A program made the position numbers and the translations under genes. The notes under the pieces were generated by a model. It saw nothing but the letters and a program-made list of their open reading frames with translations, searched no databases and was not told the origin of the DNA. This document shows, piece by piece, positions 5,685 to 60,554 of a DNA stretch of 64,000 bases. The stretch's first letter is position 1. The number at the start of each line of letters is the position of its first letter. This DNA is from an uncultured Bdellovibrionales bacterium (GTDB lineage: Bacteria > Patescibacteriota > Minisyncoccia > Moranbacterales > DUUL01): assembly GCA_964556685.1 (NCBI GenBank), contig CAZKWX010000003.1:78-64077 (forward strand), read 5' to 3'.

Positions 5685-6239
5685 TCAAACTATCTCCTCA
5701 CCTTTTCTCCAAATCAACCAATATTTATTTTTGTCTTTCGTTTTCTTTTCCTCCTGCTCGTCTTCAATCAGATGTTTTTGAGAAAATTTTTTTTGTTTAT
5801 TATTAAAGCCTTTGGTCAAGATCATAATGTAGCGACCTTTGACTTTTTCGCCCAAAAGATTGAAAGACAGTTTTCCTTCTTCGAATGATCCATTGATCAT
5901 GCCCCATTTTCCTTCGTCCCAAATTTCCACCGTTCCGGCACCATAGTTGCCTTCAGGAATTTCTCCTTCAAAATCAACATAGTCCACTGGATGATCTTCT
6001 GTTTGAATCGCTAGATGTTTGATTTCCTTGGTCAGAGGCAAGTTCTTAGGAACTGCCCACGATTTGAGCACCACTTTGCCATTCTTCTCATCTTTCATTT
6101 CAAGCCGAAAATCATAGTGCAGATGTGATGCATCGTGTTTTTGAATCACAAACCTCTGTTCCGAAGTCTTTCTGGCAGCGGGCTTCGGTTCTTTTGTCTC
6201 CTTAAAATTGCGTTTGAGCCGATATTGAATTAAGCTCAT
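5685..6239 (-). CDS. LigD-type 3'-phosphoesterase (PE) domain protein, stand-alone
   Basis: 184 aa; HLHYDFRLE motif and beta-rich core typical of the LigD PE / DNA polymerase-ligase N-terminal domain. Confidence 0.6.
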   Translation of the reverse strand: MSLIQYRLKRNFKETKEPKPAARKTSEQRFVIQKHDASHLHYDFRLEMKDEKNGKVVLKSWAVPKNLPLTKEIKHLAIQTEDHPVDYVDFEGEIPEGNYGAGTVEIWDEGKWGMINGSFEEGKLSFNLLGEKVKGRYIMILTKGFNNKQKKFSQKHLIEDEQEEKKTKDKNKYWLIWRKGEEIV

Positions 6240-16463: not shown

Positions 16464-17513
16464 CTATTTTTCTATTTTCTCCCAAGGCAAGCCTTCTTCT
16501 CCAAAATGTCCATAGGTAGCCGTTTGAAGGAAAATTGGCTTTCGCAAGTCAAGCTTCTCAATAATCGCCAAAGGGGTGAAGTCATAATTCTCTCTGACAT
16601 ACTTAGACAGATCCTCTGCTCTTTCATTAATCGCTCTGATCATAACCGGTTGAGCTTTTCCAATAGAATAAGCCACAGCTACCAAGCACTCTTTGGCCAT
16701 TCCTTTGGCTACAATGTTTTTGGCCACAAATCTAGCCATATAGGCCGCTGAGCGGTCCACTTTGGTGGCATCTTTTCCTGAAAAACATCCTCCTCCGTGA
16801 GGAACTAGTCCGCCATAGGTGTCAACCATAATTTTTCTGCCAGTCAGTCCCGTGTCCGCTTCAAAACCTCCCAGAACAAAATTTCCTGTTTTGTTGATAA
16901 TCACTTCAACACCGGAGACATCTCCAATGATTGGCTTGATCAGTTTTTCCATCAGTTCTTTTTTAATTTCTTCCTGAGAAACATCTTCATCATGTTGAGT
17001 GCTGACCACAACAGTTTTCACATTACCATTGCACATAGTCACTTGGGATTTCCCATCTGGCATAAGCCAGGGAAGCGTTCCGTCGGTCCGCAATTTTTCC
17101 AAACCTTGAGTCAGTTTGTGCGCCAGCACTACTCCCTTAGGAAGATATTCTTTGGTCTCATCAGTAGCGTAACCATACATAATTCCTTGATCCCCTGCTC
17201 CACCAGTGTCTACTCCTTGAGAAATGTCGGGTGATTGCTGAACAATATTAGTTTCAATTTTTAGTTCTCCGTTGTGACCGATTTTGTCATAAATTTCTTG
17301 AGCAATTTTTTTCGCATCGATTTTAGCATTGGTGGTAAGTTCTCCTCCAATGACTAAAAGTCCATGGGCTCCCAAAACTTCCATGGCCACTCGACTTTTT
17401 GGATCTTGGCGCAAACATTCATCCAAAATGGCATCGGAAATTTGATCACAAATTTTGTCAGGGTGTCCTGACGTGACACTTTCGGCAGTGTACTCTCGAC
17501 AATCATAATGCAT
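16464..17513 (-). CDS. metK: S-adenosylmethionine synthetase
   Basis: 349 aa; GHPDKICDQISDAILD and GGGCFSGKDATKVDRSAAYMAR signature blocks. Confidence 0.95.
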   Translation of the reverse strand: MHYDCREYTAESVTSGHPDKICDQISDAILDECLRQDPKSRVAMEVLGAHGLLVIGGELTTNAKIDAKKIAQEIYDKIGHNGELKIETNIVQQSPDISQGVDTGGAGDQGIMYGYATDETKEYLPKGVVLAHKLTQGLEKLRTDGTLPWLMPDGKSQVTMCNGNVKTVVVSTQHDEDVSQEEIKKELMEKLIKPIIGDVSGVEVIINKTGNFVLGGFEADTGLTGRKIMVDTYGGLVPHGGGCFSGKDATKVDRSAAYMARFVAKNIVAKGMAKECLVAVAYSIGKAQPVMIRAINERAEDLSKYVRENYDFTPLAIIEKLDLRKPIFLQTATYGHFGEEGLPWEKIEK

Positions 17514-17533: not shown

Positions 17534-17670
17534 AAAAACTTTCCCAAAAGGAAAGCTTCATTCAGCATCTTTCCTCGAAAGGCTAGAGTTGGCACCTACT
17601 GAGATCAAACTCAGGGTTGCCGGCAGGTCATTGGGCTAGATCCCTATCTGCACTCTTGATGATATTTGGT
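17534..17670 (-). promoter_or_regulatory. SAM-I (S-box) riboswitch with intrinsic terminator in the metK leader
   Basis: Minus-strand ATCAAGAGTGCAGATAGGGATCTAGCCCAATGACCTGCCGGCAACC...GGTGCCAACTCTAGCC matches the S-box consensus; followed by GGAAAGATGCTGAATGAAGCTTTCC stem + UUUUGGG U-run just 5' of the metK ATG. Confidence 0.75.
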
Positions 17671-17966
17671 TGTGTGAAAATTATAACACCGTTCTCATTT
17701 CTGCGCAATAGATATTTATTATCCTCCTCTGTGATTAATCCCTTTTTTTCATTTCGGTCAGTTTCTCATTTAGAATTAAGCGACTTTTTCGCCTGTATAT
17801 TTACACTTTTAGCTTAGAACATTATTTTTTGAAAGTCTGGTAATTACAAAATCTGAGTCATTCTTGATTTTGCCTAATTAAAATGGTATAAATTATACCT
17901 TGTCGAGAAATATTGTCTATTCAAATCAAACGCGCCTTAACGTTCAACTCAAAAGGAGGTTACACG

Positions 17967-18299
17967 ATGTCAGATTATGAAATCATAGTCGAAATTTTGG
18001 GAATGACGACCCATTTTGTTAACCGACATCCTAAAAAAGTGGTTAAGTTAGCATCAAAAATCTGCGCTGCTATTGCATCGGATCGAGAACTCGAAATCGA
18101 GCCAGAGAGTGTATTCTGTTTCGTCTTTCCAGTTATTGTCGGTGGTTTCGTCAACGACAATAAAACGGTTTTTGTCAGGTATTCAGCTACTTCTTCTGCT
18201 AACCTTGACATGGACTGGAGAAGCGGCGCTCACATTAAAGTCGGGCGAGTATTTTCTGAAATCTTCGGAGATGCTCTTGTTCCTAAACGAATTTTATAA
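17967..18299 (+). CDS. Hypothetical protein (start moved to ATG with AAGGAGG SD)
   Basis: 110 aa from MSDYEII; SD AAGGAGG 7 nt upstream of 17967; higher-GC islet. Confidence 0.4.
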   Translation: MSDYEIIVEILGMTTHFVNRHPKKVVKLASKICAAIASDRELEIEPESVFCFVFPVIVGGFVNDNKTVFVRYSATSSANLDMDWRSGAHIKVGRVFSEIFGDALVPKRIL

Positions 18300-18498
18300 T
18301 AGCCACCATGGGTACTCTAAGAACCGCTGGTCCACGACTGGCGGTTAAATTTTTTGGGTACCTCAAGAGGTACTTTTCGTACTTGCTAATTTTCATATTC
18401 TCAATTACTATTTATCATCACGATAAATAAGAGTTTTCATTTGGCAAAGTTTCAATTGTGAAGTTCATCAATAACACAAGACTTACGGGAGGGAAAAA

Positions 18499-18981
18499 AT
18501 GACAATCTTAACTATTGATCTGGTTGAACATGCAATTCGCTTGGCAGAACCTACAGCCCTTGCCATTCTCGATGACGATCGTGCAGTCTGGGGACCCAAA
18601 TGGGTCGATGGTTTTGTTGATGGACCAGGACTGCAACAGATAGTTCCTTTCACGTTCGGTAATAAACTACCTGCCGGTACATGGAATACTACGTGGGGAC
18701 CAGAAAAAGACTTCGTTAAAGTCGCCGGCAAAAAGTATGACCTGGTAAGCAGAGAAAAGATGTCAAGCAGCCTGATCATTGCTATTATGCCGTGGCTGTT
18801 GCAAAAAGACGAATTTCTCTATGCTGGCGGCGCCTATCGTCATGGCATAATTGCAGTGGCATCTGGAGCGAAAGGGTGGGCGGACGAAGCAATCGGTAAT
18901 GTAATCATCGACATGACCATTATGCTTTCTTACCTAAAAACAGATGCTCTTATTGCAGAAAAAAAGATGCAAATCGAATAA
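18499..18981 (+). CDS. Putative GlcG/DUF336-family (heme-binding-like) protein
   Basis: 160 aa; C-terminal GGAYRHGIIAVASGAKGWADEAIGNV resembles the GG(L/V)P..GAIGVSGG..QDEA block of DUF336; SD GGGAGGG upstream. Confidence 0.4.
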   Translation: MTILTIDLVEHAIRLAEPTALAILDDDRAVWGPKWVDGFVDGPGLQQIVPFTFGNKLPAGTWNTTWGPEKDFVKVAGKKYDLVSREKMSSSLIIAIMPWLLQKDEFLYAGGAYRHGIIAVASGAKGWADEAIGNVIIDMTIMLSYLKTDALIAEKKMQIE

Positions 18982-19077
18982 TACGAGTCACTACCTCGAA
19001 ATAACAGAAAAAGAGCCTACGATGTTAACGTAATAATATCGTTAATGTGTAGGCTCTTTATTATTTGGTAAGTAATA

Positions 19078-19245
19078 TCACTTCCAGTCTTCGATCATAA
19101 TCTTTTGGCCTTTTCGGGTGATGACAACCTTTTGACCTTCTTTGATTTTCAAGGCCTTGATGATTTCCATTGGAATTGTCACTCCATAGCTTCCTGCTTT
19201 TCGATAGACCTTGCGAATGCTTTTTTCTTTTAGTTTTCTTCTCAT
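19078..19245 (-). CDS. AbrB/MazE/SpoVT-type (swapped-hairpin) DNA-binding protein, antitoxin-like
   Basis: 55 aa from MRRKLK (start revised from 19302 ORF); GVTIPMEIIKALKIKEGQKVVI matches the looped-hinge helix of AbrB/MazE; palindromic operator sits 12 bp upstream. Confidence 0.6.
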   Translation of the reverse strand: MRRKLKEKSIRKVYRKAGSYGVTIPMEIIKALKIKEGQKVVITRKGQKIMIEDWK

Positions 19246-19256
19246 AATTATGCTTG

Positions 19257-19286
19257 GGTACCTTTTAAGGTATCTTAAAAGGTACC
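19257..19286. promoter_or_regulatory. Perfect 13-bp inverted repeat GGTACCTTTTAAG-GTAT-CTTAAAAGGTACC (putative operator of the AbrB-like gene)
   Basis: Perfect palindrome immediately upstream of the revised start 19245; a related GGTACCTC-AA-GAGGTAC palindrome lies at 18349-18368 upstream of the 18499 gene. Confidence 0.5.
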
Positions 19287-19386
19287 TTTTTATTACCTTC
19301 ATTCTATCATATCTACTTAAAAACTTGCATCATTAATTTAATAATATATCATATTACTCAAAAAGAAGCCTAATCTACTAATTGTT

Positions 19387-19929
19387 ATGGCATATCAAGT
19401 TGCCGAGTATTACAAACAGTATTTCCCATTCATTCAAGAGTGGGGAAGAAAAAAAGATATTAGTCACCATCTTCAGTATTTAGATTATCTTTACGATATA
19501 AAAAGGAGTAACAATCCTGATCGCACTTATTTATCGCTAACAAACAAGACGATCATTGTCGAATTCTTTGCTATATCCGAAGCTATAATTGATGCTCTTT
19601 TATGCGAAAAAATAGTTGATATTGGTGACGGAAAATTAGCACAGCTGTATGTGAAAGAATATACAAATGCTTCTACGTTATTAAAAATGGCTGAATATTA
19701 TGAAATAATAGACAAAAATATTTACGGTCAATTACTAAGCCTTTCAAAAACAAGAAACTTTATCCATATAAAAAGACCGAAAAGTGGCAAGCTAGAATGT
19801 AACCATTATACAGACGCTGTGCTTAAAAGGTATGAGAATTATTTTGAAAATTTTCTATCCTTTCTCTTCAATAAATACAAAGTTTATGAGACTTATGGAC
19901 TTGGTATTTTCGCTTGGCCATGGAAATAA
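19387..19929 (+). CDS. Hypothetical protein (divergent from the AbrB-like gene)
   Basis: 180 aa ORF, Tyr/Lys-rich, no assignable family. Confidence 0.45.
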   Translation: MAYQVAEYYKQYFPFIQEWGRKKDISHHLQYLDYLYDIKRSNNPDRTYLSLTNKTIIVEFFAISEAIIDALLCEKIVDIGDGKLAQLYVKEYTNASTLLKMAEYYEIIDKNIYGQLLSLSKTRNFIHIKRPKSGKLECNHYTDAVLKRYENYFENFLSFLFNKYKVYETYGLGIFAWPWK

Positions 19930-20131
19930 TCTTAATCCATAATTTTTTTTAGTAAGAGGATAAAACGAAAATCCCCCTTAGTCCCCCTTTTTCTAAGGGG
20001 GAAATATTAATTGCCACTTAGCTTTATTTTCGCTAAAATATCAACTTTCCAAATAAAAAAGCCGTTGGCCTGCGCTTAGAGCAAGTCTCCGGCTTTTTAA
20101 ATTTCGCTGATTTCTTTTCAAAATGAGGGAT

Positions 20132-20911
20132 TTACTCGAAATCTAGCCTGAATCTTGCCCAAAAATCATCAGTGAGATACAGACCTGACTTTTCTCCAAA
20201 ACTACCATGCTGGCCAATCAGTTGTTCGATACAGAAGAAAGCAGGATTGTCTGACCAGGCAACAATGTAGTGGTCCGTTTCGACAGATGACTGCATGGTC
20301 ATATAAATTCTGCAAACCCGTATCAGATCGATTATAACCGGGCATTCTGGATCATCCCAAGGAACTATTACAGCTTTTTTAAAAATGCCGCGATAGGGAT
20401 TTTTGAAAATCGGTAAACCAAGATTACACCATAAACCGTGTCGGTTATTGAAATATCAATGTTGTGCCAAAGTAAAGGGTGCATCCGAAGAGAACTTATC
20501 TAACCGAGAAAGATGCACTCGAACTTCAAAGGCTTTCTTAAGAAGTTGAAAGTCAATATTGCACTTAATCTCCCAAGGGTAGTCTGGAAAATTTTCTTCA
20601 TCATTTCCAATAATTGACTTACTTGTGATGAGATTCTTGTCGGCTCGCACCTGTTCAGAGTCGACGTCTCGAAGCCATCCATGCTGGGGAATTCCCGGAA
20701 AGTTGTCCGGTGTGCGACCAAAATTCGGGAAACATAGATGGGTTTTTCGCGGTTTAATAACTTCATCGTCACGAACGATTTCCTCAACCGGATTTCCATC
20801 CCTGTAAATGATATCTCGGCCAGGGAAAAGGATGTGAGCTCCATATCGCTGAAATCTTGTTATATTATTGCTTACAACATCAACGCTCATATCATGGCCT
20901 TGGATCAACAT
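20132..20911 (-). pseudogene. Aldose 1-epimerase / D-hexose-6-phosphate mutarotase-family gene interrupted by one in-frame TGA
   Basis: N-terminal 151 aa (..HLCFPNFG..PQHGWLRD..) ends TLAQH-TGA, then the same frame continues stop-free for 107 codons (YFNNRHG...HYIVAWSDNPAFFCIEQL..), restoring the mutarotase H-x-YFN and CIEP motifs. Confidence 0.65.
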
Positions 20912-20939
20912 AAGACACCTCTCCTTCGCCGAAAATTTG

Positions 20940-21371
20940 TTATAACACAGCCGTTGTTTTTCGTGGTCCGATAATAACTTTACACAGATACGAATCTGAC
21001 CAATTCATCGAAGCTCTATCAAAATATGCTCGCGCTTCATCCTTGTCATTAAACGGAACAAATTTTCTTTCTTCGCCATCACCAAATATAATTACAAAAT
21101 ATTTGGTTACGAGATCTGGTTCTTTTTTCTCTAGTTCCAATCCTCTTGCAATAGCATGAAAAGCATCGGCAATGGCTCTAGGCAGACCAGGAAATGCCGT
21201 AGCTGCACCACCCGAGGTGCAAATTCTGACACCTCTTCCAGCAACGCCCCGACCTTCTGGTACTGTAGCAACGTACCAATCGCCGTTACCTCCTATAGTA
21301 ATCACTAGTTCATTTCTCCTTTTCGAATCTTTATCATCAGTGAGAAACCTGACTTCCTTGATTTCACTCAT
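20940..21371 (-). CDS. Hypothetical protein
   Basis: 143 aa ORF in higher-GC islet. Confidence 0.45.
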   Translation of the reverse strand: MSEIKEVRFLTDDKDSKRRNELVITIGGNGDWYVATVPEGRGVAGRGVRICTSGGAATAFPGLPRAIADAFHAIARGLELEKKEPDLVTKYFVIIFGDGEERKFVPFNDKDEARAYFDRASMNWSDSYLCKVIIGPRKTTAVL

Positions 21372-21758
21372 TTTTTTCCTCCTTTTGTAAATAACTTTGA
21401 TTGTTTATTATCAAGGTTACATTAATAGCATTTATTTTCCGAAAATTCAAGCTGCAAAAAAATACCCATTAAAATGGCCATTTAAATGGGTATTTTTTCA
21501 TCCCATCTTAATCTTCCCCTTATTAATGGGAGGAACATCATCAACCACCCCCATCCTTCGCTAAAGCTTCAGAGGGCAGGCCTACGCCCCTCCCTGCCTA
21601 CTGGCAGGCAGGCTTTCTAAGGAGGGGAAAGATGCAAATCCCCCTGAAAAATGTGATCCATTTCGTTCATCTATGTTTTTCTTCTCCCTCTTTCAAAAGG
21701 GGAACAAGAACAACAGGTTGCGTTTGAATGGTTATGTCTTTATGATGAATTTGAAAAT

Positions 21759-22301
21759 ATGAAAAAGCGTTTAGATCAAAAATTTTATGCTCAAGACACT
21801 CAACAAGTGGCTCAAGGCCTTTTGGGTAAAATTTTAGTTCGGAAAATTGGCCATCAAACGATCGAAGGCACAATTATTGAAACTGAAGCCTACTTGGGAC
21901 AATACGACAAGGCCTGCCATACTTCGCGAGGGAAGACAGCTCGAAATGAAATTATGTTCGGTCCGGCAGGTTTTTGGTATGTCTATATGATTTATGGCAT
22001 GTACCATTGCCTCAATATCGTCACCGAAAAGGAAGATCAAGGATCTGCCGTTTTGATTCGAGCAGTTGAACCAGTTTCTAGACTAGCTTCTAACATCAAA
22101 ACTGATGGACCAGGAAAATTGTGTCGAGAATTTCAAATTGATAGGAAATTAAATGATTCAAGTGCGTTCGATAATGATTCAGAATTATATATAGTGGATA
22201 ACTTCATTAAACCTAAAATAAATAAAACAAAAAGAGTCGGCGTTGATTATGCGGGAAAATTTTGGAAAAATAGATTATTGAGGTATCATATAGAAAAGTA
22301 A
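21759..22301 (+). CDS. mpg: DNA-3-methyladenine glycosylase (Mpg/AAG family)
   Basis: 180 aa; LLGKILVRK..GTIIETEAYLG..DKACH..RGKTARNE.MFGP.G..YVYMIYGMYHCLNIV. Confidence 0.85.
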   Translation: MKKRLDQKFYAQDTQQVAQGLLGKILVRKIGHQTIEGTIIETEAYLGQYDKACHTSRGKTARNEIMFGPAGFWYVYMIYGMYHCLNIVTEKEDQGSAVLIRAVEPVSRLASNIKTDGPGKLCREFQIDRKLNDSSAFDNDSELYIVDNFIKPKINKTKRVGVDYAGKFWKNRLLRYHIEK

Positions 22302-22329
22302 ACTTATAATTAAGAATTAAACTAAAAAC

Positions 22330-22875
22330 ATGCTGGAAAAAATTGAGGGGAAAATGGGCACTCCTCCGGATCTTTCAGAGCTTTCAGACAAAGAATTGGA
22401 AAAGCGAGGAATTGATCCAGAACAATTCAGAGCCGGAGAAAAGAAACTGGAAGAAATGCAACGTTTATCAAGAACAAATTTAGAGGATGTTGATAGTCCA
22501 AAAAAGAAGATTGATTCTCAATTGAACAAGGCTAGAAGCAGGTTCTCAAAAATATTCGAGGGGTGGGGAAAAAGAGGCAAAACAATATCAGCAATAACAA
22601 TGGCCGCAGCTACTAGCTTCGCGGCAGCGTCTCCGGCTTTCGCAGATACTTGGGGCGACAGAAGGAGTGGGCAAAGAGGAGGTTCTAGCGGTTCTACTGG
22701 TTCTACTAAAGAACGGGCTGGTAATGTTCTAAATGAAATAGAAGCATGGTCAGATATAATCGATAGAACTTTAGAAATATACAATAAAGAAAAAAAACGC
22801 TTCCCTAAAAAGAAACCCGATAGCCCTCAGCCCAGGACTTCATCTGAAGAATCACCGTCTGATGAAGGACATTAA
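22330..22875 (+). CDS. Hypothetical protein
   Basis: 181 aa; Lys/Glu-rich; Gly/Ser-rich tract. Confidence 0.45.
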   Translation: MLEKIEGKMGTPPDLSELSDKELEKRGIDPEQFRAGEKKLEEMQRLSRTNLEDVDSPKKKIDSQLNKARSRFSKIFEGWGKRGKTISAITMAAATSFAAASPAFADTWGDRRSGQRGGSSGSTGSTKERAGNVLNEIEAWSDIIDRTLEIYNKEKKRFPKKKPDSPQPRTSSEESPSDEGH

Positions 22876-22891
22876 AAGTAATTAATAAAAA

Positions 22892-23152
22892 ATGAACAAT
22901 AAAGAAAAACTTAAGAAACATATCGAGAATTCAAATCTAGAGCTGGAAGAAAAAGCTCTTTGGTATCGTTATCTCGAAATTGGAAAAGATCCTGATATCG
23001 ATGCAATTCTAGGAGCTGTTGAAAAGAATCCCGAAGATCTGAAATTTTTAACCAAGAACTTCAAGAACAAAATAGAGGCTTTTGAATCTGGGAGCGAAGA
23101 GGATTGGAAAAGAATTGCCCAAAATGATATGAAATATGTTAGTGAGGAATAA
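22892..23152 (+). CDS. Hypothetical small protein
   Basis: 86 aa ORF followed by terminator. Confidence 0.4.
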   Translation: MNNKEKLKKHIENSNLELEEKALWYRYLEIGKDPDIDAILGAVEKNPEDLKFLTKNFKNKIEAFESGSEEDWKRIAQNDMKYVSEE

Positions 23153-23170
23153 GAATGAACTAAAAAACAA

Positions 23171-23195
23171 GAGCCGTCTGAGGACGGTTTTTGTT
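23171..23195 (+). terminator. Rho-independent terminator (CCGTC-TGAG-GACGG + T5)
   Basis: GC stem followed by TTTTTGTT after 22892..23152. Confidence 0.55.
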
Positions 23196-23244
23196 CCTTT
23201 ATTGATGTTAAATAAACAAAACGTAAAACATTTTTCTCTCTTCT

Positions 23245-23375
23245 TAGTGTAAGGGGAGATTAAGAGGGGTTAGTTTTGATTGCAGAAGAGACCGGCCAAT
23301 TCACTTAACTCCCCCTGAATTCATTACTAATGAATTCAGCCCCCTCTTACCCTAAGAGGGGGAACAAATAAGATC
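23245..23375. repeat. G-tract palindromic dispersed repeat (copy B)
   Basis: Homologous to 9150-9310; contains perfect palindromes GAATTCATTA-c-TAATGAATTC and CCCCCTCTTA-ccc-TAAGAGGGGG. Confidence 0.55.
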
Positions 23376-23430
23376 TACGGCTCATAGGTATCCAAATTAA
23401 TTTCATGAAACTAAGTGAATAGCTGTACAC

Positions 23431-24189
23431 ATGGATGATATCCACAATAACAAAAAGGATGTGAAAAAAATGAATCAGCCTAGCAAAAAGCCCGGAAACA
23501 AAAAAGCTTTCCTTTGGGTGGTGGTAGCAGTGGGAATTTTTATGCTGCTGCTTTTGCTTTCTGGAGGAGTGTCATTTTGGTTCTGGTTGGGACTGGCTTT
23601 GTGGATCGGATATATCCTATTCGTGAAAATCAAATATGTTGGAGGGGATTACGCTTTCAGCAAAGTTTTGGGAATGGGAATTGGCGTGTTCTTTCTGAGT
23701 TTTATTTTTTTAGCCTTTACACCTTCTGAGCAGAATGGCACACCTTCAAATAACGTGAATAGTTTTAGCAATGAAGAAGAGTCCGAAGATGATTTTCAAG
23801 AAATTGAACTAGCCATTGAGCCAACTAAAGTAGAAATTTTTCTGATGAAATTAAAAAATGACACGAATCTGCAATTTTCCGAAATTGAAGATGCTAGTTT
23901 GCTCTGGAAAGGCTCTAATGTGAATATGATATTGCAAGAAGTTGAGAGTTTTCAATTGAAAGACGCTGGTGAAGAAGACGTGAAAAAGATTAATACTTTT
24001 TTCACCGATTTGGGATGGGATCACGGAACTGTTGGCTTCACTTACACTCCTATTGAAGATGACAAGGAAACCGGTTATGCTTCAACCTCGATGGAACCTG
24101 CGTTCAAAGGAATCATGTGTGTGATTGATCAAAATGATCCAAAAGCTGTGGTGATTAAGTGCGGGCTTAGTCCAGAAGAAAATGAATGA
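23431..24189 (+). CDS. Hypothetical membrane protein (two N-terminal TM helices)
   Basis: 252 aa ORF; acidic C-terminal domain. Confidence 0.5.
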   Translation: MDDIHNNKKDVKKMNQPSKKPGNKKAFLWVVVAVGIFMLLLLLSGGVSFWFWLGLALWIGYILFVKIKYVGGDYAFSKVLGMGIGVFFLSFIFLAFTPSEQNGTPSNNVNSFSNEEESEDDFQEIELAIEPTKVEIFLMKLKNDTNLQFSEIEDASLLWKGSNVNMILQEVESFQLKDAGEEDVKKINTFFTDLGWDHGTVGFTYTPIEDDKETGYASTSMEPAFKGIMCVIDQNDPKAVVIKCGLSPEENE

Positions 24190-24278
24190 ACTATAAATTA
24201 TAGTGAAATATGTCATCTCGAGTTCCACTTTGGTGGAATTCAGTCAAATATCCCTTACATGATTGGAGGAACTAAAAA

Positions 24279-27220: not shown

Positions 27221-28276
27221 TTAAATTAGCTTGCTTTGCTCCTCCGGGTACTCGATATCCAAGTGTTTATAGGCTGACTTAGTGGCTTTCCGTCCTCGAG
27301 GAGTTCGTTCCAGAAATCCAATTTGCAAAAGATAAGGCTCATAGACTTCTTCGATGGTTTGAGGTTCTTCAGAGAAAGCCGCTGCCACGGTCTGCACACC
27401 TACCGGCCCACCATCAAATTTTTCAATCATCACTCGGAGCAACTCTCTGTCAGCTGGTTCCAGCCCTATTCCATCAACATCTAGCATATTGAAGGCTCTT
27501 TTAACCGTGCTTTCAGTTATCATATCATGATCATTAATCTGCGCATAGTCACGAACTCTTTTTAGCAAACGATTGGCTACCCGAGGAGTTTTGCGAGAGC
27601 AACGAGCAATCTCGTTGCACCCGGAACCATCCACTCCTACGTTGAGAATTTTTCCCGAGCGACGCACGATGTCACTGATTTCATCGTCGTCATAGAAATT
27701 CAGTTTATAGGTCACTCCAAATCTGTTGCGCAAGGGTGAAGAAAGCATGCCTAATCTAGTTGTCGCGCCTACCAAGGTGAAGCGAGGCAGATCAAGTTTG
27801 ATCGTTCGAGCTGAAGGTCCCTTACCTACAATGATATCCAATGATCCATCTTCCATCGCTGGATAGAGCACCTCTTCGACTAATTTACTCAATCGGTGGA
27901 TTTCATCAATAAATAAGACGTCCCCGTCATTAAGATTGGTCAGAATCGACCCCAAATCGCCCACTCTTTCTATGGCTGGACCAGAGGTGGTTTTGATTCC
28001 AGTGCCCATTTCTTTGGCAATGATGTGGGCTAGAGTCGTTTTTCCCAATCCTGGTGGACCAAAAAGCAGCACATGCTCAATGGGTTCTTTTCTCTTTTGG
28101 GCGGCACCCAAAAGAACACTTAAGTTTTTCTTAATTTTCTTTTGACCAACATACTCGGAAAAGTTTTGTGGCCGAAGAGTGATCTCCAACTGTTCTTCTT
28201 CGACTGTTCGATTTTTGTTCGAAGTAATCATTAAAATTTTTGAAATAATCCACGTCGTGTTTAGTAGTATATACAA
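27221..28276 (-). CDS. ruvB: Holliday junction branch migration DNA helicase RuvB
   Basis: 351 aa; [22 protein letters not shown] Walker A, sensor motifs, C-terminal winged helix. Confidence 0.95.
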
Positions 28277-28334: not shown

Positions 28335-28545
28335 GACACATTCAAAAGACATTTTTGCTAGTAACCTGTAGGCAAAGGGGTGCTCTGACTCCTTGGATCT
28401 CTTCTTATGTAAAAGACTTGCGTGGTTTCGACTGCGTTAGCTCTCGGATCTGATCCAGCCTTACGCTCTTTGCGTAAGATTTTTGTCTACAGATTACTAG
28501 CAAAATACAAATGGCTACCTCTCTGAGAGGTGGTTTTTTGTTTTA
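28335..28545 (+). ncRNA. Candidate small structured RNA of unknown class
   Basis: TTGACA at 28301 with weak -10; nested helices (CTGTAGGCAAA/TTTGTCTACAG, CTTACGC/GCGTAAG, GGATC/GATCC) and a terminator stem + T6GT4 at 28512-28545; no ORF. Confidence 0.25.
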
Positions 28546-28563: not shown

Positions 28564-31500
28564 TTATTTTGAATTATTTTTCCCTTCTTCCAGTCGTTCT
28601 TTTTTTTCTTCTGAGTCAATTTCTTTGACTATTCTGGCCACTTCATCATAAGAAGTCTCGCCTAACAAAACTCTCAAGATGCCATCTTGAGCCATGGTCA
28701 TCATTCCCTCTTCGATGGCCTCTTTTCTAATTTCGCTAGTAGTGGGATTCTTAGCCAAAAATGTTTCCATCTCCGGATTAATTTCAAGCATCTCAGCAAT
28801 AGGAATTCTTCCTTGATAGCCAATGTCGCTGCACTTTTCACAGCCCACTGGATCATATATCTTTTTAATTGGGGGTGTTTTTATTCCTGTTTTGGGAGAA
28901 AGCTCTTCGAGTGCTTCGTTGATCTCTTCTTTTTCTGAATCAGTTGGCCTTCTTCCTTTTCGACAATCAGGACAAAGTTTTCGCACCAACCTTTGAGCGA
29001 TGAAGCAATTGGTTCCAGCAATCATATCAGAAAGACTCAGTCCCATATTAACTAGGCGCTGAATTGATCCAGCCGCACTGTTGGTGTGCAAGGTGCTCAA
29101 AACCAAATGGCCAGTTAGAGCCGCTTGATAGGCCGCTTCGGCTGTGTCACCATCCCGAATTTCACCCACCATCATAATGTCAGGATTTTGTCGGAGCAAG
29201 GCCCTGATAGCTGTTGCAAAAGTGTAGTCTTCTTTTTCTTTAATTTGAGTTTGAATAATCCCATCCAGTTGATATTCGATTGGATCTTCAACGGTAATTA
29301 TTTTTGATTCAGGACTATTAAGATAGGTCAAAGCACTATAGAGAGTAGTTGTTTTTCCGCTGCCGGTTGGCCCAGTGTTGATGATGATTCCATTGGGCTT
29401 CTTGATGTTGCGTTTGAGTTTTTCCAAGTTGAGTGGATGCAAGTTTAATTTTTCAAGTTCAGTCGCCTGAGCTGCTTGGTTGAGCAAGCGCATCACGATA
29501 ATGTCTCCGAAGCCACCCAAAATGATCGAGACTCTCACGTCAATTCTTTTATCTTTGATTTCTTTCATGTCATCGGGAACACTAATTCTGAACCTTCCAT
29601 CAATCACCCCTTGTCTGATTTGAGTTTTGAATCCAGAAAGGTTTTTGATTTCATTCAAAACATTTAAAAATTCGGTCATCGGCAATCTCACAATATCATG
29701 TAAAATTCCGTCGATTCTGAATCGAACTTTAAAGTCATTTTCCCCTGGTTCAATGTGAATATCACCCGCTCTCATGAACAGCGCTGCCGAAAGAACATAC
29801 TTAATGATCTCACTCAGAGAAGCCTTCTGAAGTTTTGTTTCCAATTTTTCATAATCTTTGGATAGTTTTTTAGTTTTATCCATAATTTCTTTTTCAATCA
29901 TGACTCCTCTTGAAAGAGATTGAATGACAATCTTTTCATAGATTTTCATGAGATATTCTCCTGTTCCAACCACTCGTTGCAATTCTTCCAGTGATGTTGT
30001 TCCTTGGATAGATTTTAGAATTCCATCTTGTTCATAGGTGATCATGCCATTCTCCAACGAAGCAATTCTTAAATCATCTTCAGTGGCAATTTTTTCAATC
30101 AGGTTTCTAATGTCATCATTGATAGTCATAACTTCAAAAATTCCTGTTCTCCCTCGATAGCCCAGCCCTTGACACTTGTGACATCCTTTTGGCCGCCAAA
30201 GATATTCTACCTTTTTAGGGATTTCCACCTTTGATTTGGGAGAAATTAACGAGAGCATCTTTTTGAGAGTGGTGATTGTTTCTTCGGCCGGCACATATTT
30301 TTCTTTACAATGAAAACAAAGTTTTCGCACCAATCTCTGGGCAATAAGACAATTTACGGCCGAAGCAATCAGGGCGGGTTTGACTCCCAAGTCAATCATG
30401 CGGCCAACTACTCCCGCTGAGCTGTTTGAGTGGATAGTGGTTAACACTAAATGACCGGTCAAGGCTGCATGGATTGCAATTTCGGCTGTAGCTTCATCCC
30501 GAATTTCACCCACTAAAATAATATCTGGGTCTTGACGAACAATTGAGCGAAGGCCTTTTTCAAAAGTATAACCCTTTTCATCCTCTACTTGAGTTTGACT
30601 AACTCCTGAAACTTGATATTCCACTGGATCTTCAATGCTAATAACTTTTTTGTCGGGAGAATTTATTCGATTGATGATTGAATAGAGAGTAGTAGTTTTA
30701 CCGCTGCCGGTTGGTCCAGAGTTGATGATCATGCCTTGCTTTCTCTCTGATTCAGCTACTAGCCAATCATAACTCAACCCAGTCAATCCTGCTTTTTTGA
30801 GATCAAGTTCTTCGATGTCTTGACCCAACAGTCGAATCACAATATTTTCTCCGTGATTGCCAGGAAGCACTGAAACTCGAACATCAATTTCATCTCCCTT
30901 TTCTTCGTCAAGTTTGATGGAAAACCTTCCATCTTGAGCAACTTCTCTCACATTGACCATCATTTTGCTCAATATTTTTATTCGAGACAAAATTGTGGGA
31001 TAGATGTTGATGGAAAATTCCGCTACCGTCTGAAGCACCCCATCAATTCGGTAACGCAACCTGACTTTCTCGTCTTTTTCTGGTTCAAAGTGAATATCCG
31101 ATGCTCTGAGTTTCATCGCTCCAGCAAAAATCATATTCAGAACCTCAGTCACTGGGAGTTCGTTAATTCTTTTTTCCAAATCAATAACTCCTTCGAGATC
31201 TTTTTCGAACTCTTCCAGATCTCTCCCCTTCAGATTCATCCTCATATAGTCAAAGACCTCAGTTAGTCTAGTCTTTTTGTATTCGCCTAGCGCTGCTTCG
31301 AAAGAAGTTTTTGAAACTACAAATACTTCAACTTTATAGCCCTCTTTTTTCTCCAAATTTTCCAGATAGGTTTTAACTTCCTTAGGCTGCGGATTAACAG
31401 CAGCGACCTTGATGTCTTTTTCCTTCCGGTAGATGGCCATCAGATTTAACTTTTTGGCCTCTGTCTCAGGAACAACCCAAATGCTTTCCTGATCAATGGG

Positions 31501-31668
31501 AAAGATATTCAAATCTAAGTAGGGGTAGTTCAAGGACTTGGCAAATCGAGCCGCTTCTTCCTCCTCTGACTTCTGGCGAAGCGTTTTCAGCACTTTGCGA
31601 ACTTTTGTGGGATCGGCCATTCCTGGATTATGGATTTTTTTTGTTTTTTTATTTTCTTTTTTTGGCAT
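28564..31668 (-). CDS. pilB: Tandemly duplicated type IV pilus / type II secretion ATPase (PilB/GspE-GspE fusion)
   Basis: 1034 aa; two complete GspE N-terminal + ATPase cores, each with Walker A GPTGSGKTTTLYS, Asp/His boxes and a C-terminal tetracysteine zinc module (CFHC..CHKC and CPDC..CEKC). Confidence 0.85.
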   Translation of the reverse strand: MPKKENKKTKKIHNPGMADPTKVRKVLKTLRQKSEEEEAARFAKSLNYPYLDLNIFPIDQESIWVVPETEAKKLNLMAIYRKEKDIKVAAVNPQPKEVKTYLENLEKKEGYKVEVFVVSKTSFEAALGEYKKTRLTEVFDYMRMNLKGRDLEEFEKDLEGVIDLEKRINELPVTEVLNMIFAGAMKLRASDIHFEPEKDEKVRLRYRIDGVLQTVAEFSINIYPTILSRIKILSKMMVNVREVAQDGRFSIKLDEEKGDEIDVRVSVLPGNHGENIVIRLLGQDIEELDLKKAGLTGLSYDWLVAESERKQGMIINSGPTGSGKTTTLYSIINRINSPDKKVISIEDPVEYQVSGVSQTQVEDEKGYTFEKGLRSIVRQDPDIILVGEIRDEATAEIAIHAALTGHLVLTTIHSNSSAGVVGRMIDLGVKPALIASAVNCLIAQRLVRKLCFHCKEKYVPAEETITTLKKMLSLISPKSKVEIPKKVEYLWRPKGCHKCQGLGYRGRTGIFEVMTINDDIRNLIEKIATEDDLRIASLENGMITYEQDGILKSIQGTTSLEELQRVVGTGEYLMKIYEKIVIQSLSRGVMIEKEIMDKTKKLSKDYEKLETKLQKASLSEIIKYVLSAALFMRAGDIHIEPGENDFKVRFRIDGILHDIVRLPMTEFLNVLNEIKNLSGFKTQIRQGVIDGRFRISVPDDMKEIKDKRIDVRVSIILGGFGDIIVMRLLNQAAQATELEKLNLHPLNLEKLKRNIKKPNGIIINTGPTGSGKTTTLYSALTYLNSPESKIITVEDPIEYQLDGIIQTQIKEKEDYTFATAIRALLRQNPDIMMVGEIRDGDTAEAAYQAALTGHLVLSTLHTNSAAGSIQRLVNMGLSLSDMIAGTNCFIAQRLVRKLCPDCRKGRRPTDSEKEEINEALEELSPKTGIKTPPIKKIYDPVGCEKCSDIGYQGRIPIAEMLEINPEMETFLAKNPTTSEIRKEAIEEGMMTMAQDGILRVLLGETSYDEVARIVKEIDSEEKKERLEEGKNNSK

Positions 31669-31761
31669 TTTAGTAATATTTGAAGTAATTCACTTATGAT
31701 GAATCACTTTAATTATATCAATTTAAAAGGGGCTTGGAAACCCCTGTTTTTAGTCTATCTT

Positions 31762-50189: not shown

Positions 50190-51719
50190 GTGGCTTCCAA
50201 AGTTTATTCTGCCTGTTTCTACGGCATGGATGGAAAAATTATCGAAGTTGAAGTTGACACTTCTCCTGGTCAACCAGTTTTTAATATTGTTGGGTTGCCC
50301 GACATGGCCGTCAAAGAAGCCAAGGATCGCGTTTCCAGTGCTATCAAGAATTCTGAATTGCGTCCTCCTCAGTTTTTTGGTCGCATTACTGTTAATTTGG
50401 CACCAGCTGATCTTAAAAAAGAGGGTCCTTCATTTGATTTGCCGATTGCTTTGGGAATCTTGCTGGTTTCAAACCAGATCGAAGAATTGCCTGAAAAATC
50501 CGTCTTTTTAGGTGAATTAGCTTTAGATGGGAGGCTTCGAAAAACCAAAGGGGCTCTGCCAGTAGCCATCACTCTCAAGGAAAAAGGCTTTGAAAAAGTT
50601 TTTGTGCCAAGCATAGTAGCCGATGAGGCTAATCTTGTTGAAGAAATTAAGGTCTATCCAGCTGATAACTTATCCGAGTTAGTCGATCATTTATCAGGAG
50701 AGGAAAAAATATCACCACTCGTGAAAAAGAACGATGTTTTTGATGATCTTAAAGCCCTTCAGTACTCTCATGATTTCTGTTTCATCAAAGGACAACATCA
50801 CGTCAAACGAGCTTTGGAAATTGCCGTTGCTGGAGGTCATAATATTTTGCTTTCAGGACCTCCCGGATCGGGGAAGACTATGTTGGCCAAATCTCTACCT
50901 TCCATTATGCCACCGCTCACCATTGATGAAGCTTTTGAAGTGACAAAATTGTATTCGATTTCGGGTCTAACCAACTCTGAAAATCCATTCGTCAAAGAGC
51001 GACCTTTTCGTCATCCTCATCATAGCGCCTCAGCGGTTTCTTTGGTGGGAGGAGGAACTTTCCCCAAGCCAGGAGAGATCTCTTTGGCTGATCGAGGAGT
51101 GTTGTTTCTTGACGAATTCCCTGAATTCACCCGAGAAGTGATTGAAAATCTGCGCCAACCTTTGGAAGACGGCCAGGTTTCAATTTCCCGCGCTCAAGGC
51201 AGCGTCACTTTCCCTGCTAGATTTATCCTTGTGGCTGCCATGAACCCTTGCCCTTGCGGCAATTCCACTGATCCGCAAAAAGCTTGCACTTGCACTCCCA
51301 GTCAAGTGTCCCGCTACAAGCGAAAACTTTCCGGACCGATCATGGATCGAATCGATCTTCACATTGAAGTTCCCCGACTCAAGTTTGAAAAGCTTTCCTC
51401 TGAGGGACTGGGTGAGAAGAGTTTTGACATTCGGAAAAGAGTCGTGGGCACCAGAGATATTCAATCGAAAAGGTTTAAAAACATGAAGATTTTCACCAAT
51501 TCTGAAATGGACAGCAAGCTACTTCGAAAACATTGTGCCATTGGTGAAACTGAAAAAGAGCTCTTGCGCAATGCCATCAAGCAAATGAATCTTTCCCCCC
51601 GAGGTTATTATCGACTTTTGAAAGTGGCCCGCACCATTGCTGATTTGAATGGTGAAGAAAACATAAAATCGTCCCATCTAGCCGAGGCGATCCAATACCG
51701 ATTCAGGGAAGAGATGTAA
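50190..51719 (+). CDS. comM: YifB/ComM-family Mg-chelatase-like AAA+ ATPase
   Basis: 509 aa; Lon-like N domain, Walker A GPPGSGKT, Mg_chelatase core and C-terminal domain. Confidence 0.85.
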   Translation: MASKVYSACFYGMDGKIIEVEVDTSPGQPVFNIVGLPDMAVKEAKDRVSSAIKNSELRPPQFFGRITVNLAPADLKKEGPSFDLPIALGILLVSNQIEELPEKSVFLGELALDGRLRKTKGALPVAITLKEKGFEKVFVPSIVADEANLVEEIKVYPADNLSELVDHLSGEEKISPLVKKNDVFDDLKALQYSHDFCFIKGQHHVKRALEIAVAGGHNILLSGPPGSGKTMLAKSLPSIMPPLTIDEAFEVTKLYSISGLTNSENPFVKERPFRHPHHSASAVSLVGGGTFPKPGEISLADRGVLFLDEFPEFTREVIENLRQPLEDGQVSISRAQGSVTFPARFILVAAMNPCPCGNSTDPQKACTCTPSQVSRYKRKLSGPIMDRIDLHIEVPRLKFEKLSSEGLGEKSFDIRKRVVGTRDIQSKRFKNMKIFTNSEMDSKLLRKHCAIGETEKELLRNAIKQMNLSPRGYYRLLKVARTIADLNGEENIKSSHLAEAIQYRFREEM

Positions 51720-54005: not shown

Positions 54006-54917
54006 ATGTCAAAAATTCAGAATCTCATTACTGACTATCTCGAATATCTTGAAGTTGATCTCGGCCGATCCGAGAAGACTTTGGAAAATTATCATCGCTA
54101 TTTAAATAAATTTATTGAGTGGTCAAAGATCACCAGCTCTTCCCAAATCAATGAAAATTTGGTTCACAAATATCGGGTTCGTCTCAATCGAGTTCAAGAC
54201 AAAAGTGGCAAGAGTCTTTCTCGTCGAACTCAGAATTATCACATCATCGCTCTGCGAGGTTTTTTGAAATATCTTTCCAAAAAAGATATCAAATCTCTAG
54301 CGGCCGAAAAATTGGACTTAGCTAAAACTGAAGAACGGCAAGTTGATTTTCTCACTTTCGATGAAGTGAAAAGTCTCATTGAAGCAGCTGAAGGGACTAC
54401 TCAAATGAAGTTGCGTGATCAAGCTATTTTAAAGCTTTTTTTCTCTTCTGGTCTTCGAATTTCTGAATTAACAAGTCTCAATCGTGATCAAATCAATCTC
54501 AAAAGTGGTGAATTTTCTGTTCGTGGCAAAGGCTCAAAAGTGAGAATCGTCTTTGTTTCTGATGTGGCTCGCGATGCTATTCGCAAATATTTCGATAAGC
54601 GCACTGATGTGGACCAAGCCCTCTTTGTTCGAGTGATGAAAAATCCTGAAAAAGAATCTGACCTGCGCTTAAGTGCTCGGAGTGTCCAAAGAATGATCAA
54701 AAAATATGCTGCCAAGGCTGGCATCGTCAAAAAAGTCACTCCTCACGTTCTGCGCCACAGCTTCGCCACTGACCTGCTTCAGAACGGTGCCGACATTCGT
54801 TCCGTTCAAGCCCTCTTGGGCCACAGCTCAATCAACACCACTCAGATCTATACTCATGTGACCAACAAAGATCTCAAAGAAGTGCACCGAAAGTTTCATG
54901 GAAAGGAGAGGAGGTAA
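54006..54917 (+). CDS. xerC: Tyrosine site-specific recombinase XerC/XerD-like
   Basis: 303 aa; RHSFATDLLQNGADIRSVQALLGHSSINTTQIYTHV C-terminal catalytic block (R..HxxR..Y). Confidence 0.85.
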   Translation: MSKIQNLITDYLEYLEVDLGRSEKTLENYHRYLNKFIEWSKITSSSQINENLVHKYRVRLNRVQDKSGKSLSRRTQNYHIIALRGFLKYLSKKDIKSLAAEKLDLAKTEERQVDFLTFDEVKSLIEAAEGTTQMKLRDQAILKLFFSSGLRISELTSLNRDQINLKSGEFSVRGKGSKVRIVFVSDVARDAIRKYFDKRTDVDQALFVRVMKNPEKESDLRLSARSVQRMIKKYAAKAGIVKKVTPHVLRHSFATDLLQNGADIRSVQALLGHSSINTTQIYTHVTNKDLKEVHRKFHGKERR

Positions 54918-55156: not shown

Positions 55157-55230
55157 GGACGATTAGCTCAGGTGGTTAGAGCGTTCGCTTGACATGCGAG
55201 AGGTCGGAGGTTCAAGTCCTCCATCGTCCA
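55157..55230 (+). tRNA. tRNA-Val (anticodon GAC)
   Basis: GGACGAT/ATCGTCC acceptor, D arm GCTCAGGTGGTTAGAGC, anticodon stem-loop TTCGC-TTGACAT-GCGAG, T arm GGAGGTTCAAGTCCTCC, discriminator A. Confidence 0.85.
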
Positions 55231-55417
55231 CAAGGAAGTCAGAGATTTTAACAATTTGTCTCCGACGTTACGTTGGAGCAACAAATCGAAATCCGCTCTT
55301 GGCGGGCAAGTCCCCTCGAGCCCACAAGATAAAAGGCGTCTCTAGCGCTTTTTTAGTTTTTTCTGTTTTACTTTCCTCTTTTTTGATGTTACATTTGGAA
55401 TACCTAAAGTAAAAAAT

Positions 55418-59684: not shown

Positions 59685-60554
59685 ATGAAAATCGGCTGTC
59701 ACGTTTCCATCGCCGGAGGATTAGAAAACGCTCCCAAGAACGCTCGGGACTTGGATTGCGAATGTTTTCAAATGTTTTCCCGATCACCTAGAGGCGGAAA
59801 TTACACCCCCCTAGACGAAAAAGGGGCAAAAACATTTCTAGAAGCCTGCAAAAAATATAAATATGAAATTGGCAAGGATTACGTTATCCACTCTCCCTAT
59901 TTTATCAATTTAGCCAGCAGCAATAATCGGATTTATTATGGCTCAATCAATATTTTGCGACAAGAATTAGACACGGCCAGCTTGATTGATTGTCCTTATG
60001 TGATCACACACATTGGTAGCGCTAAGGATATCTCTGGAAAGACGTCGGACGTCTCCAAAGACGTCGGACGTCTCATCCTAAGAGCTATCAAAAAAATCCA
60101 CGAAAAATATTCTGGCAGTGCTCAGTTAGTTTTGGAAATCGCTGCCGGATCAGGCCAGATTATTGGCGATTCGCTTGAAGAAATCGGTTATTTTTTAAAA
60201 CAGGCCAAAAAAGATGATATTGAATTGGGATTTTGTTTTGACACTTGCCACAGCTTTGCAGCTGGTTATGATTTGAGATCAGCAGAAAAAGTGCGAGAAG
60301 TTTTTGCCGAAATTGACAAAGTAATTGGCTTGGATCACCTTAAGTGTATTCACTTCAATGACTCAATGACCGAGTTTGATTCTCACAAGGATCGCCACGA
60401 GCATATTGGCAAGGGTCAAATTGGAAAAGAAAACCTCAAAGAAGTAGTCAAGGTAGCTCAAGAACTTGATCTGAACTTATATTTAGAAACCAAGCATGAT
60501 AAGATAGAAGAAGACCTTAAAGTCACGAAAGGATTTCGTGACAATTCCAGATGA
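59685..60554 (+). CDS. nfo: Endonuclease IV (AP endonuclease family 2)
   Basis: 289 aa; HSPYFINLAS, VITHIGS, CFDTCHSFAAGYD metal-ligand motifs; stop TGA. Confidence 0.85.
   Translation: MKIGCHVSIAGGLENAPKNARDLDCECFQMFSRSPRGGNYTPLDEKGAKTFLEACKKYKYEIGKDYVIHSPYFINLASSNNRIYYGSINILRQELDTASLIDCPYVITHIGSAKDISGKTSDVSKDVGRLILRAIKKIHEKYSGSAQLVLEIAAGSGQIIGDSLEEIGYFLKQAKKDDIELGFCFDTCHSFAAGYDLRSAEKVREVFAEIDKVIGLDHLKCIHFNDSMTEFDSHKDRHEHIGKGQIGKENLKEVVKVAQELDLNLYLETKHDKIEEDLKVTKGFRDNSR

Follow-up and report, generated by a model that had tools for sequence, protein, structure and literature searches.

A conserved PilB/GspE-type ATPase family of Patescibacteria with two motor cores in one chain, probably a natural covalent dimer

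The 64,000-nt stretch of contig CAZKWX010000003.1 analyzed here (referred to below as the window) encodes on its reverse strand, at 28564..31668 (-), a protein of 1034 amino acids (aa) that carries two PilB/GspE-type ATPase cores in a single chain. This fused ATPase is probably a natural covalent dimer of an ATPase of the type that assembles type IV filaments, with the layout N1-[N2D-CTD]-linker of ~45 aa-[N2D-CTD]; the same degree of confidence applies to the reading as a whole, including the ring assembly proposed below. Both motor copies are apparently active, judging from their conserved residues, and hundreds of relatives share the architecture.

Domain organization of the fused ATPase

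The open reading frame (ORF), taken from the ORF list and its translation, starts with ATG and is uninterrupted. Two stretches of T2SSE (PF00437) are recognized in it by Pfam (E = 6e-221), and BLASTP of the halves aligns core 1 (aa 164-567) with core 2 (aa 609-1014) at 41% identity over 408 aa (E = 7e-117), which bears out the single ORF of 1034 aa with two PilB/GspE ATPase cores described in the first-pass annotation of the window. According to Pfam, BLASTP and alignment to PilB structures, core 1 (N2D1 and CTD1) occupies 29968..31179 (-), and core 2 (N2D2 and CTD2, delimited as aa 613-1014) occupies 28627..29832 (-). The Walker A motif, Asp box, His box and tetracysteine module that the annotation had assigned to each half are all recovered by translation and alignment. 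In particular, the Walker A sequence is GPTGSGKT in both cores (aa 318-325, 30694-30717 (-), and aa 766-773, 29350-29373 (-); coordinates verified by translation), and the Cys4 zinc modules, located from the sequence, are at 30172-30318 (-) in core 1 and 28831-28974 (-) in core 2.

The annotation had also described two full copies of the GspE N-terminal domain, but Pfam identifies only one, an N1 domain (MshEN, former T2SSE_N; PF05157, E = 3.7e-7) in a single stretch at aa 46-135 (31264..31533 (-)). The duplicated unit is the N2D and CTD core plus a short helical segment before N2D, and N1 is present once, so that the ratio of N1 to cores is 1:2 and not the one N1 per core of PilB/GspE. A second N1 domain within the inter-core linker (aa 568-612, 29833..29967 (-)) was considered and rejected, as the linker has no Pfam match and, with its 45 aa, is too short to house it. 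The linker is predicted with low confidence to be helical and opens with the conserved motif GxGEYLxxLYEKIxxQxL, with G568, L573, Y577 and L585 invariant in an alignment of 37 fused members (alignment A1). The MshEN motif for cyclic di-GMP, RLGxx(L/I/V)2xxG, is absent from the N1 domain, and the corresponding regular expression matched only 1 of 388 proteins.

In the AlphaFold2 model of the whole chain, made with the family alignment, the domains fold well (mean pLDDT 79, pTM 0.53), and the start of the linker (residues 571-590) has pLDDT of 54-56. In Foldseek searches the two cores are matched one at a time: every alignment to PilB, PilF and GspE chains spans a single core, and TM-scores reach 0.91 (normalized by the target chain) for PilB chains, among them 5tsh and 5it5. 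No solved chain spanning both cores was found either by HMMER against solved chains or by Foldseek.

Catalytic and contact residues in the two cores

Residues of both cores were mapped to PilB of G. metallireducens (PilB_Gm) via HMMER alignments to 6OLJ/5TSG, and their roles were taken from McCallum et al. 2017 (PMC5424180), where R271 and R286 are arginine fingers, E357 coordinates Mg, and roles are also assigned to E395, H413, H420 and R455. By this alignment, both cores retain a complete active site and the ring-contact residues, all of them invariant in the 37 members of A1. The Walker A lysine is K324 in core 1 and K772 in core 2; the Asp-box Glu, equivalent to E357, is E350 and E798; the catalytic Glu of the atypical Walker B, equivalent to E395, is E388 and E836; the His-box residues H406, H413 and H854, H861 correspond to H413 and H420 of PilB_Gm; and the N2D arginine fingers R264, R279 and R712, R727 correspond to R271 and R286. 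Moreover, the inter-chain Arg (R455 in PilB_Gm) is R448 in core 1 and R896 in core 2, and the predicted zinc-module Cys are C451, C454, C496, C499 and C899, C902, C943, C946, respectively. The tetracysteine zinc module and the inter-chain Arg of the R455 type are features of the PilB/GspE clade, the former being absent from PilT and FlaI.

When the comparison was widened to 117 members, the two halves shared the same residue, at a conservation of 95% or more, in 82 aligned positions; core 1 is under somewhat tighter constraint (mean pairwise identity 65% vs 59.5% for core 2). Among ~14 more divergent representatives of 50%-identity clusters, both cores still match GxxxxGK[ST] and the other motifs are kept, core 2 showing the P-loop variants GPTSSGKT, GPTSAGKT, GSTGAGKT and GPTGHGKS in divergent lineages. 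The equivalent of R257, read by eye from the sequences, is R, H or T in core 1 and the invariant R692 in core 2. The alignments thus give no sign of a dead half in the double-core family: the loss of catalytic residues from one half was a possibility raised by the first-pass annotation, but these residues are conserved in both halves across the family.

Authenticity and spread of the double-core family

The identical 1034-aa protein, with the same neighbors, is present on contigs from three independent sequencing-run assemblies (Sequence Read Archive), and also in an NCBI record. An artefact, in which neighboring pilB paralogues had been joined by a sequencing or assembly error, can therefore be given practically no weight. 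Misassembly is also rejected because hundreds of full-length relatives (44-70% identity) have a single open frame and the conserved linker motif, none of them showing a stop or frameshift between the halves; both doubts had been raised when the gene was first annotated, and the fusion is genuine.

In a word-indexed search, the 120 best clusters were all relatives of the fused ATPase (1005-1110 aa, 52-70% identity, 94-100% query coverage), full-length with the exception of one truncated protein. A second search, seeded with a relative, added ~115 further double-core proteins, and at least 245 distinct cluster representatives have at least 950 aa and two P-loops. Where a source is named, it is Moranbacteria, the Parcubacteria group or the Patescibacteria group, and the existing annotation is plain "GspE/PulE family protein" or "PilB". 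Exhaustive HMMER search yielded 14,960 T2SSE-like clusters at E < 1e-30, and ~15 of the 150 best 50%-identity representatives were double-core. The architecture, initially regarded as unusual, is indeed rare among all T2SSE ATPases, but it is standard in Moranbacteria-like Patescibacteria.

The open-access literature yielded no relevant account of a tandem, fused or duplicated PilB, of two T2SSE domains, or of a ruvB-linked pilB of Patescibacteria, and in Meheust et al. 2019, where PilB and PilT are handled together as a single family, there is no comment on fusions (PMC6744442). As far as the searchable literature goes, this conserved double-core family seems to be undescribed.

Origin of the duplication

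A neighbor-joining tree of 187 cores (200 bootstraps) was constructed from the fused proteins and single PilBs of 80 genome loci, with PilT as the outgroup; the loci, obtained by a profile search of contigs (at least 600 stretches), are a sample and not a census. The second cores are monophyletic (78% bootstrap), the first cores group with the single-core PilBs of loci L003, L004 and L006 (98%), and an exclusive grouping of core 1 with core 2 has 0% support, the two halves never being each other's nearest relatives. Core phylogeny thus shows that the double form arose when the core was duplicated in tandem inside the gene, in a PilB lineage specific to Patescibacteria. The duplication is old, as had been suspected at first inspection, with the halves only 41% identical and the second halves from different genomes forming a clade. 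The single-core genes of L003, L004 and L006 occupy the same syntenic slot as the fused gene; since the first cores group with these single-core PilBs of the same locus, either the duplication is older than the single-core lineages and was subsequently lost in some of them, or core 2 is faster-evolving.

Other changes of core number were observed as well. Protein P0009 (L083:10001-14383, 1460 aa, on one JGI contig) has three T2SSE cores, the second and third of which share 58% identity and group as sisters (85% bootstrap). No second triple-core protein is found among the 120 best matches to P0009, which weakens the argument that two and three are both divisors of six. The double-core proteins P0131 and P0134, with no MshEN domain detected by Pfam at E <= 1e-5, have halves that are 55% and 71% identical and nearer to each other than to any other protein, and hence represent younger independent duplications. 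A separate case is P0136 (1047 aa), apparently from another phylum, being non-Patescibacterial by composition, in which two T2SSF (platform) stretches are fused to two T2SSE cores, the first of which has lost both the Asp box and the Walker A lysine (GPTGSGTT). This fusion may serve as a "Rosetta stone", pointing to a single platform repeat for each ATPase core. Taken together, these cases show that core duplication in PilB-type ATPases occurred several times.

Genomic neighborhood of the ruvB-linked clade

On the (-) strand of the window the gene order is a G5/DPBB protein gene, ksgA, the ATPase gene, ruvB (27221..28276 (-), with Pfam domains RuvB_N, AAA_lid_4 and RuvB_C) and the gene of a bPH_2 protein. 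The window is housekeeping DNA, with tsf, rpsB, pnp, ileS, dnaX, metK, ftsK and infB located farther away; ruvA is absent from all 64 kb and from the immediate surroundings of ruvB. The lack of adjacent pilC, pilM and pilin genes, noted earlier, extends to the entire window, where no pilC, pilM, pilT, pilD or pilin gene was found (pilins were sought with a regular expression for class III signal peptides and by reading small ORFs).

To place this neighborhood in context, 83 PilB loci were compared by tblastn, 34 of them belonging to the clade specific to the Candidate Phyla Radiation (CPR) and 49 being other PilB loci, and neighbors were counted within 3 kb. In the clade, ruvB is present in 26/34 loci, always downstream and on the same strand, tsaE in 21/34 and ruvC in 12/34, while none of the three occurs in the other 49. 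The pilus genes are distributed in the opposite way: pilC is found at 38 and pilT at 30 of the 49 other loci, pilM and pilD at four each, and none of these four genes at any clade locus. The conserved arrangement in Patescibacteria is thus tsaE (divergent) / PilB-like ATPase, a structured RNA described below, and ruvB (followed in some loci by ruvC), and not a pilus operon; examples are L030:9523-13028, L043:9346-12455, L032:6120-13990 and L006:7591-15148. A gene system uniting the ATPase with PilC/GspF, PilM, prepilin peptidase and pilins was found neither in the window nor at the 34 clade loci.

The ATPase slot of the clade is filled by N1-less (~440 aa), ordinary (~570 aa), double or triple proteins, in members from Saccharibacteria, Nealsonbacteria, Giovannonibacteria, Kaiserbacteria, Staskawiczbacteria, Minisyncoccia, Moranbacteria and others. 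In Saccharibacteria, the PilB of a pilM-pilB-pilT-pilC-pilin-pilD operon (L016) belongs to a different clade than the ruvB-linked gene (L030). In L043, a ComEA-like HHH_3 protein is encoded two genes beyond ruvB. The window also encodes a ComM/YifB-type Mg-chelatase-like AAA+ protein (50190-51719 (+)), from a family linked to natural transformation; as it is 20 kb from the ATPase gene, no linkage is claimed.

Proposed assembly and alternative explanations

PilB has been described as "beads on a string", with the nucleotide bound between N2D and CTD of one chain and the rigid contact of N2D with the neighboring CTD formed between chains (PMC5424180). Because the active site of PilB lies within one chain, a second core on a flexible linker can fill the next bead position. 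Three chains of the fused ATPase would then form one six-core ring with cores 1 and 2 alternating. This assembly would carry three N1 domains, its ATP sites would fall into two chemically different classes, and its built-in symmetry would be three-fold rather than two-fold. Such a ring would drive a PilC-type platform encoded elsewhere in the genome, polymerizing pilins into a pilus or a DNA-uptake filament. We infer the trimer-as-one-ring arrangement from the beads-on-a-string build, the flexible 45-aa linker and the lack of a role for a ring distant from the platform. An alternating ring would suit the three-fold "open-closed" conformations that, according to PMC6858323, are known in the PilB/PilT-type family, rather than the two-fold cycle proposed for PilB.

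Several observations weigh against this reading. No confident docking of the cores on each other was obtained with AlphaFold2 (pTM was 0.53 with the full-length chain, and 0.38 with a CTD1-linker-N2D2 construct modeled to see whether N2D2 docks on CTD1). In an alternating ring, unlike cores would be opposite each other, in conflict with the two-fold-symmetric PilB cycle. Positions conserved only in core 1 fall in both N2D and CTD of this core and, together with the relaxed core 2, are at least equally consistent with like-with-like contacts. Only one example of the triple-core form was found. Moreover, pilT, pilC, pilM and pilD are absent from the clade loci over their whole length (up to +/-10 kb), no pilin gene was found within 10 kb in these 34 loci or in the window, and the presumed link of the ATPase with a pilus is drawn from homology alone.

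When P-loop NTPase domains are arrayed in tandem along a chain, they generally form stacks, as in KaiC, EccC, ClpB and p97, and two stacked homomeric hexameric rings, with six chains forming a core-1 ring on a core-2 ring, would also be compatible with the like-with-like interfaces suggested by the core 1-only positions in N2D and CTD and the uniformly relaxed core 2, as well as with N2D2 not being docked onto CTD1 by AlphaFold2. Stacking nevertheless seems unlikely to us: PilB acts on a membrane platform via one face of the ring and presumably threads no substrate, so that a distal ring would presumably be idle (as follows from PMC5424180), and the flexible linker has sufficient length to extend to the neighboring position in the same ring. 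Besides, the presence of two T2SSF stretches alongside two cores within the single chain of P0136 suggests a one-to-one, side-by-side arrangement of cores. The same P0136, although unrelated, has a first core without the Walker A lysine and Asp box, and this, along with the faster evolution of core 2 and its P-loop variants in divergent lineages, could be taken to mean that one core hydrolyzes ATP and the other is a structural or regulatory pseudo-ATPase. We consider such a division of labor very improbable, as the P-loop Lys, the Asp-box Glu, the catalytic Glu, both His and both arginine fingers are conserved in both cores of the fused ATPase and of 117 relatives, and every P-loop variant still conforms to GxxxxGK[ST].

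The genomic context raises the question whether the protein is a pilus motor at all, since the orphan ruvB-linked clade might have some other job tied to DNA uptake or recombination. Consistent with this are the frequent ruvB, tsaE and ruvC in the clade (26/34, 21/34 and 12/34) with pilT, pilC, pilM and pilD in none, the reversed pattern at other PilB loci (ruvB 0/49, pilC 38/49), the ComEA-like protein near ruvB in L043, and the presence in Saccharibacteria of the ruvB-linked gene besides a complete pilus operon (L016 vs L030). We still regard a non-pilus function as quite unlikely, because the protein retains all PilB/GspE-specific features (among them the inter-chain Arg, the zinc module and the platform-facing N1), because the pilus genes of a genome frequently lie apart from one another, and because synteny with housekeeping genes may be mere inheritance. 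In addition, the ATPase gene has its own apparent promoter and terminator and hence is not obviously co-transcribed with ruvB. A bolder combination of these elements appears doubtful: an ancient PilB-like motor, independent of pilus operons, would reside at a fixed tsaE/ATPase-RNA-ruvB-ruvC locus with its core number repeatedly remodeled, the double form would be a trimer ring with alternating non-equivalent sites and three-fold symmetry, and the module with its RNA would serve DNA uptake or recombination and not classical pilus extension.

The firing mode of the six sites in PilB/PilT-type motors is still under debate: both two-fold and three-fold symmetric cycles are considered, and so is the question of which sites must be active. 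In a homohexamer any mutation affects all six sites at once, while a natural covalent dimer, if the reading is true, would give direct genetic access to alternate ring sites separately, of the kind obtained with engineered linked subunits in other ring ATPases. In Moranbacteria-like genomes, the ATPase that generally passes for "PilB" represents a different, orphan lineage, which matters for reconstructions of metabolism and lifestyle of Patescibacteria, ultrasmall bacteria in which pili are thought to be central to attachment and DNA uptake.

Comparison with known systems

The best sequence matches of the fused ATPase are PilB proteins, the extension ATPases of type IVa pili (G. metallireducens 5TSG/5TSH/6OLJ and Myxococcus 3JC8; E ~1e-103 for core 1 and 1e-84 to 1e-87 for core 2). 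They are also the best fold matches, and N1 as well as all catalytic, arginine-finger, His-box, zinc-module and inter-chain Arg residues (the latter in both cores) are shared with them, while two cores per chain with one N1 and a gene located away from pilC and pilT are the differences. GspE/EpsE of type II secretion (Vibrio 1P9R, 4KSR, 4PHT) belongs to the same clade and likewise has the zinc module and N1, but no gsp operon surrounds the fused ATPase, and Patescibacteria are not expected to possess a secretin system of the diderm type (Meheust 2019, PMC6744442). The fused ATPase scores above the cut-off of the NCBIfam GspE model, this score being inflated by the summation over two cores. Similarly, the ComGA model NF041000 yields 455 bits against a cut-off of 300, again summed over two cores and below the PilB and GspE models, and no comG-like operon is present at the locus.

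PilF from Thermus thermophilus (6F8L, 913 aa) is also a PilB lengthened by internal domain repetition, but the repeated part there is the N-terminal GSPII/N1 domain, PilF having one ATPase core, whereas in the fused protein it is the core itself. KaiC, EccC (type VII secretion) and ClpB/p97 resemble the fused ATPase in having two or three NTPase domains that originated by duplication within the chain; they come from other branches of the superfamily, and their rings are stacked, unlike the single alternating ring that we favor here. The PilC/GspF platform protein, too, is a product of internal duplication, with two T2SSF repeats, though it is a membrane partner and not an ATPase, and none is encoded near the fused gene. 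Finally, PilB1 and PilB2 of the Saccharibacteria strain TM7x, with tested roles in twitching motility and host binding, are located in loci with pilC/pilM/pilN/pilO, and the ruvB-linked gene is not listed among them (PMC12206443); the gene of the ruvB-linked clade (e.g. in L030) is separate from both.

Structured RNA and transcription signals at the locus

The interval between the ATPase gene and ruvB contains a structured RNA of ~147 nt (28356..28502 (-)), which is context and not a part of the protein, and constitutes a separate lead. Its minimum free energy z-score is -5.6; it has no match in Rfam 15 at E <= 10, and we know of no similarity to SRP (signal recognition particle) RNA, 6S RNA, RNase P or any riboswitch class. 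Two covariance models combined place it in 26 loci including the window, all in the clade and on the ATPase strand, and in 0/49 other PilB loci. It is spread over many Patescibacteria classes between the PilB-like gene and ruvB, with lengths of ~125-190 nt (L002:9188-9345, L003:2316-2475, L081:13183-13337, L082:13049-13205, L083:14441-14596, L087:13365-13511; also L042, L043, L054 and others).

A long stem closes the RNA, which further comprises a hairpin and, around the conserved core YYGAGGAAU-[hairpin]-AUCC, an inner helix. The 18-bp closing helix (P1), which includes G-U pairs, is 90.7% paired, vs 62% in shuffles and ~35% when slid, with compensatory changes in 17 of its 18 pairs; the inner hairpins covary too. 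Where the ATPase gene and ruvB are separated, the RNA accompanies ruvB in four loci and the ATPase gene in three. It could be a riboswitch-like leader of ruvB or a free small RNA.

Transcription signals were predicted from sequence and constitute weak evidence. A promoter-like site TTTCCA-17-TATAAT with the TG of an extended -10 (31712..31740 (-), consensus scan only) is located ~44 nt upstream of the ATPase ATG, and the same kind of scan places a terminator-like hairpin for ksgA at 31728-31745. Past the ATPase stop codon, a hairpin followed by a U-rich tract (28513..28535 (-)) is a candidate terminator, weak in the window, while L081 and L002 have a clear hairpin and T-run after the stop. A -35/-10-like box precedes ruvB.

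Other features of the window

An ordinary SAM-I riboswitch (17562-17665 (-); 58.4 bits vs the gathering score of 44.4) is located directly upstream of metK (16464-17513 (-)). The region 17900-24200 has a lower G+C content (0.37) and small ORFs without Pfam matches, and is possibly a variable island; one of the ORFs there (19078-19302 (-)) is, by eye, a candidate AbrB/MazE-type antitoxin. DNA-repair genes are represented by MPG (21759-22301), UDG (60654-61316), AP endonuclease (59685-60554) and a DNA alkylation repair gene (63036-63752), and a stand-alone LigD 3'-phosphoesterase domain protein of 184 aa (5685-6239 (-)) is encoded in a region rich in such genes. A tyrosine recombinase of the Phage_integrase family (XerC/D-like; 54006-54917 (+)) lies 240 nt upstream of tRNA-Val (55157-55231 (+)).

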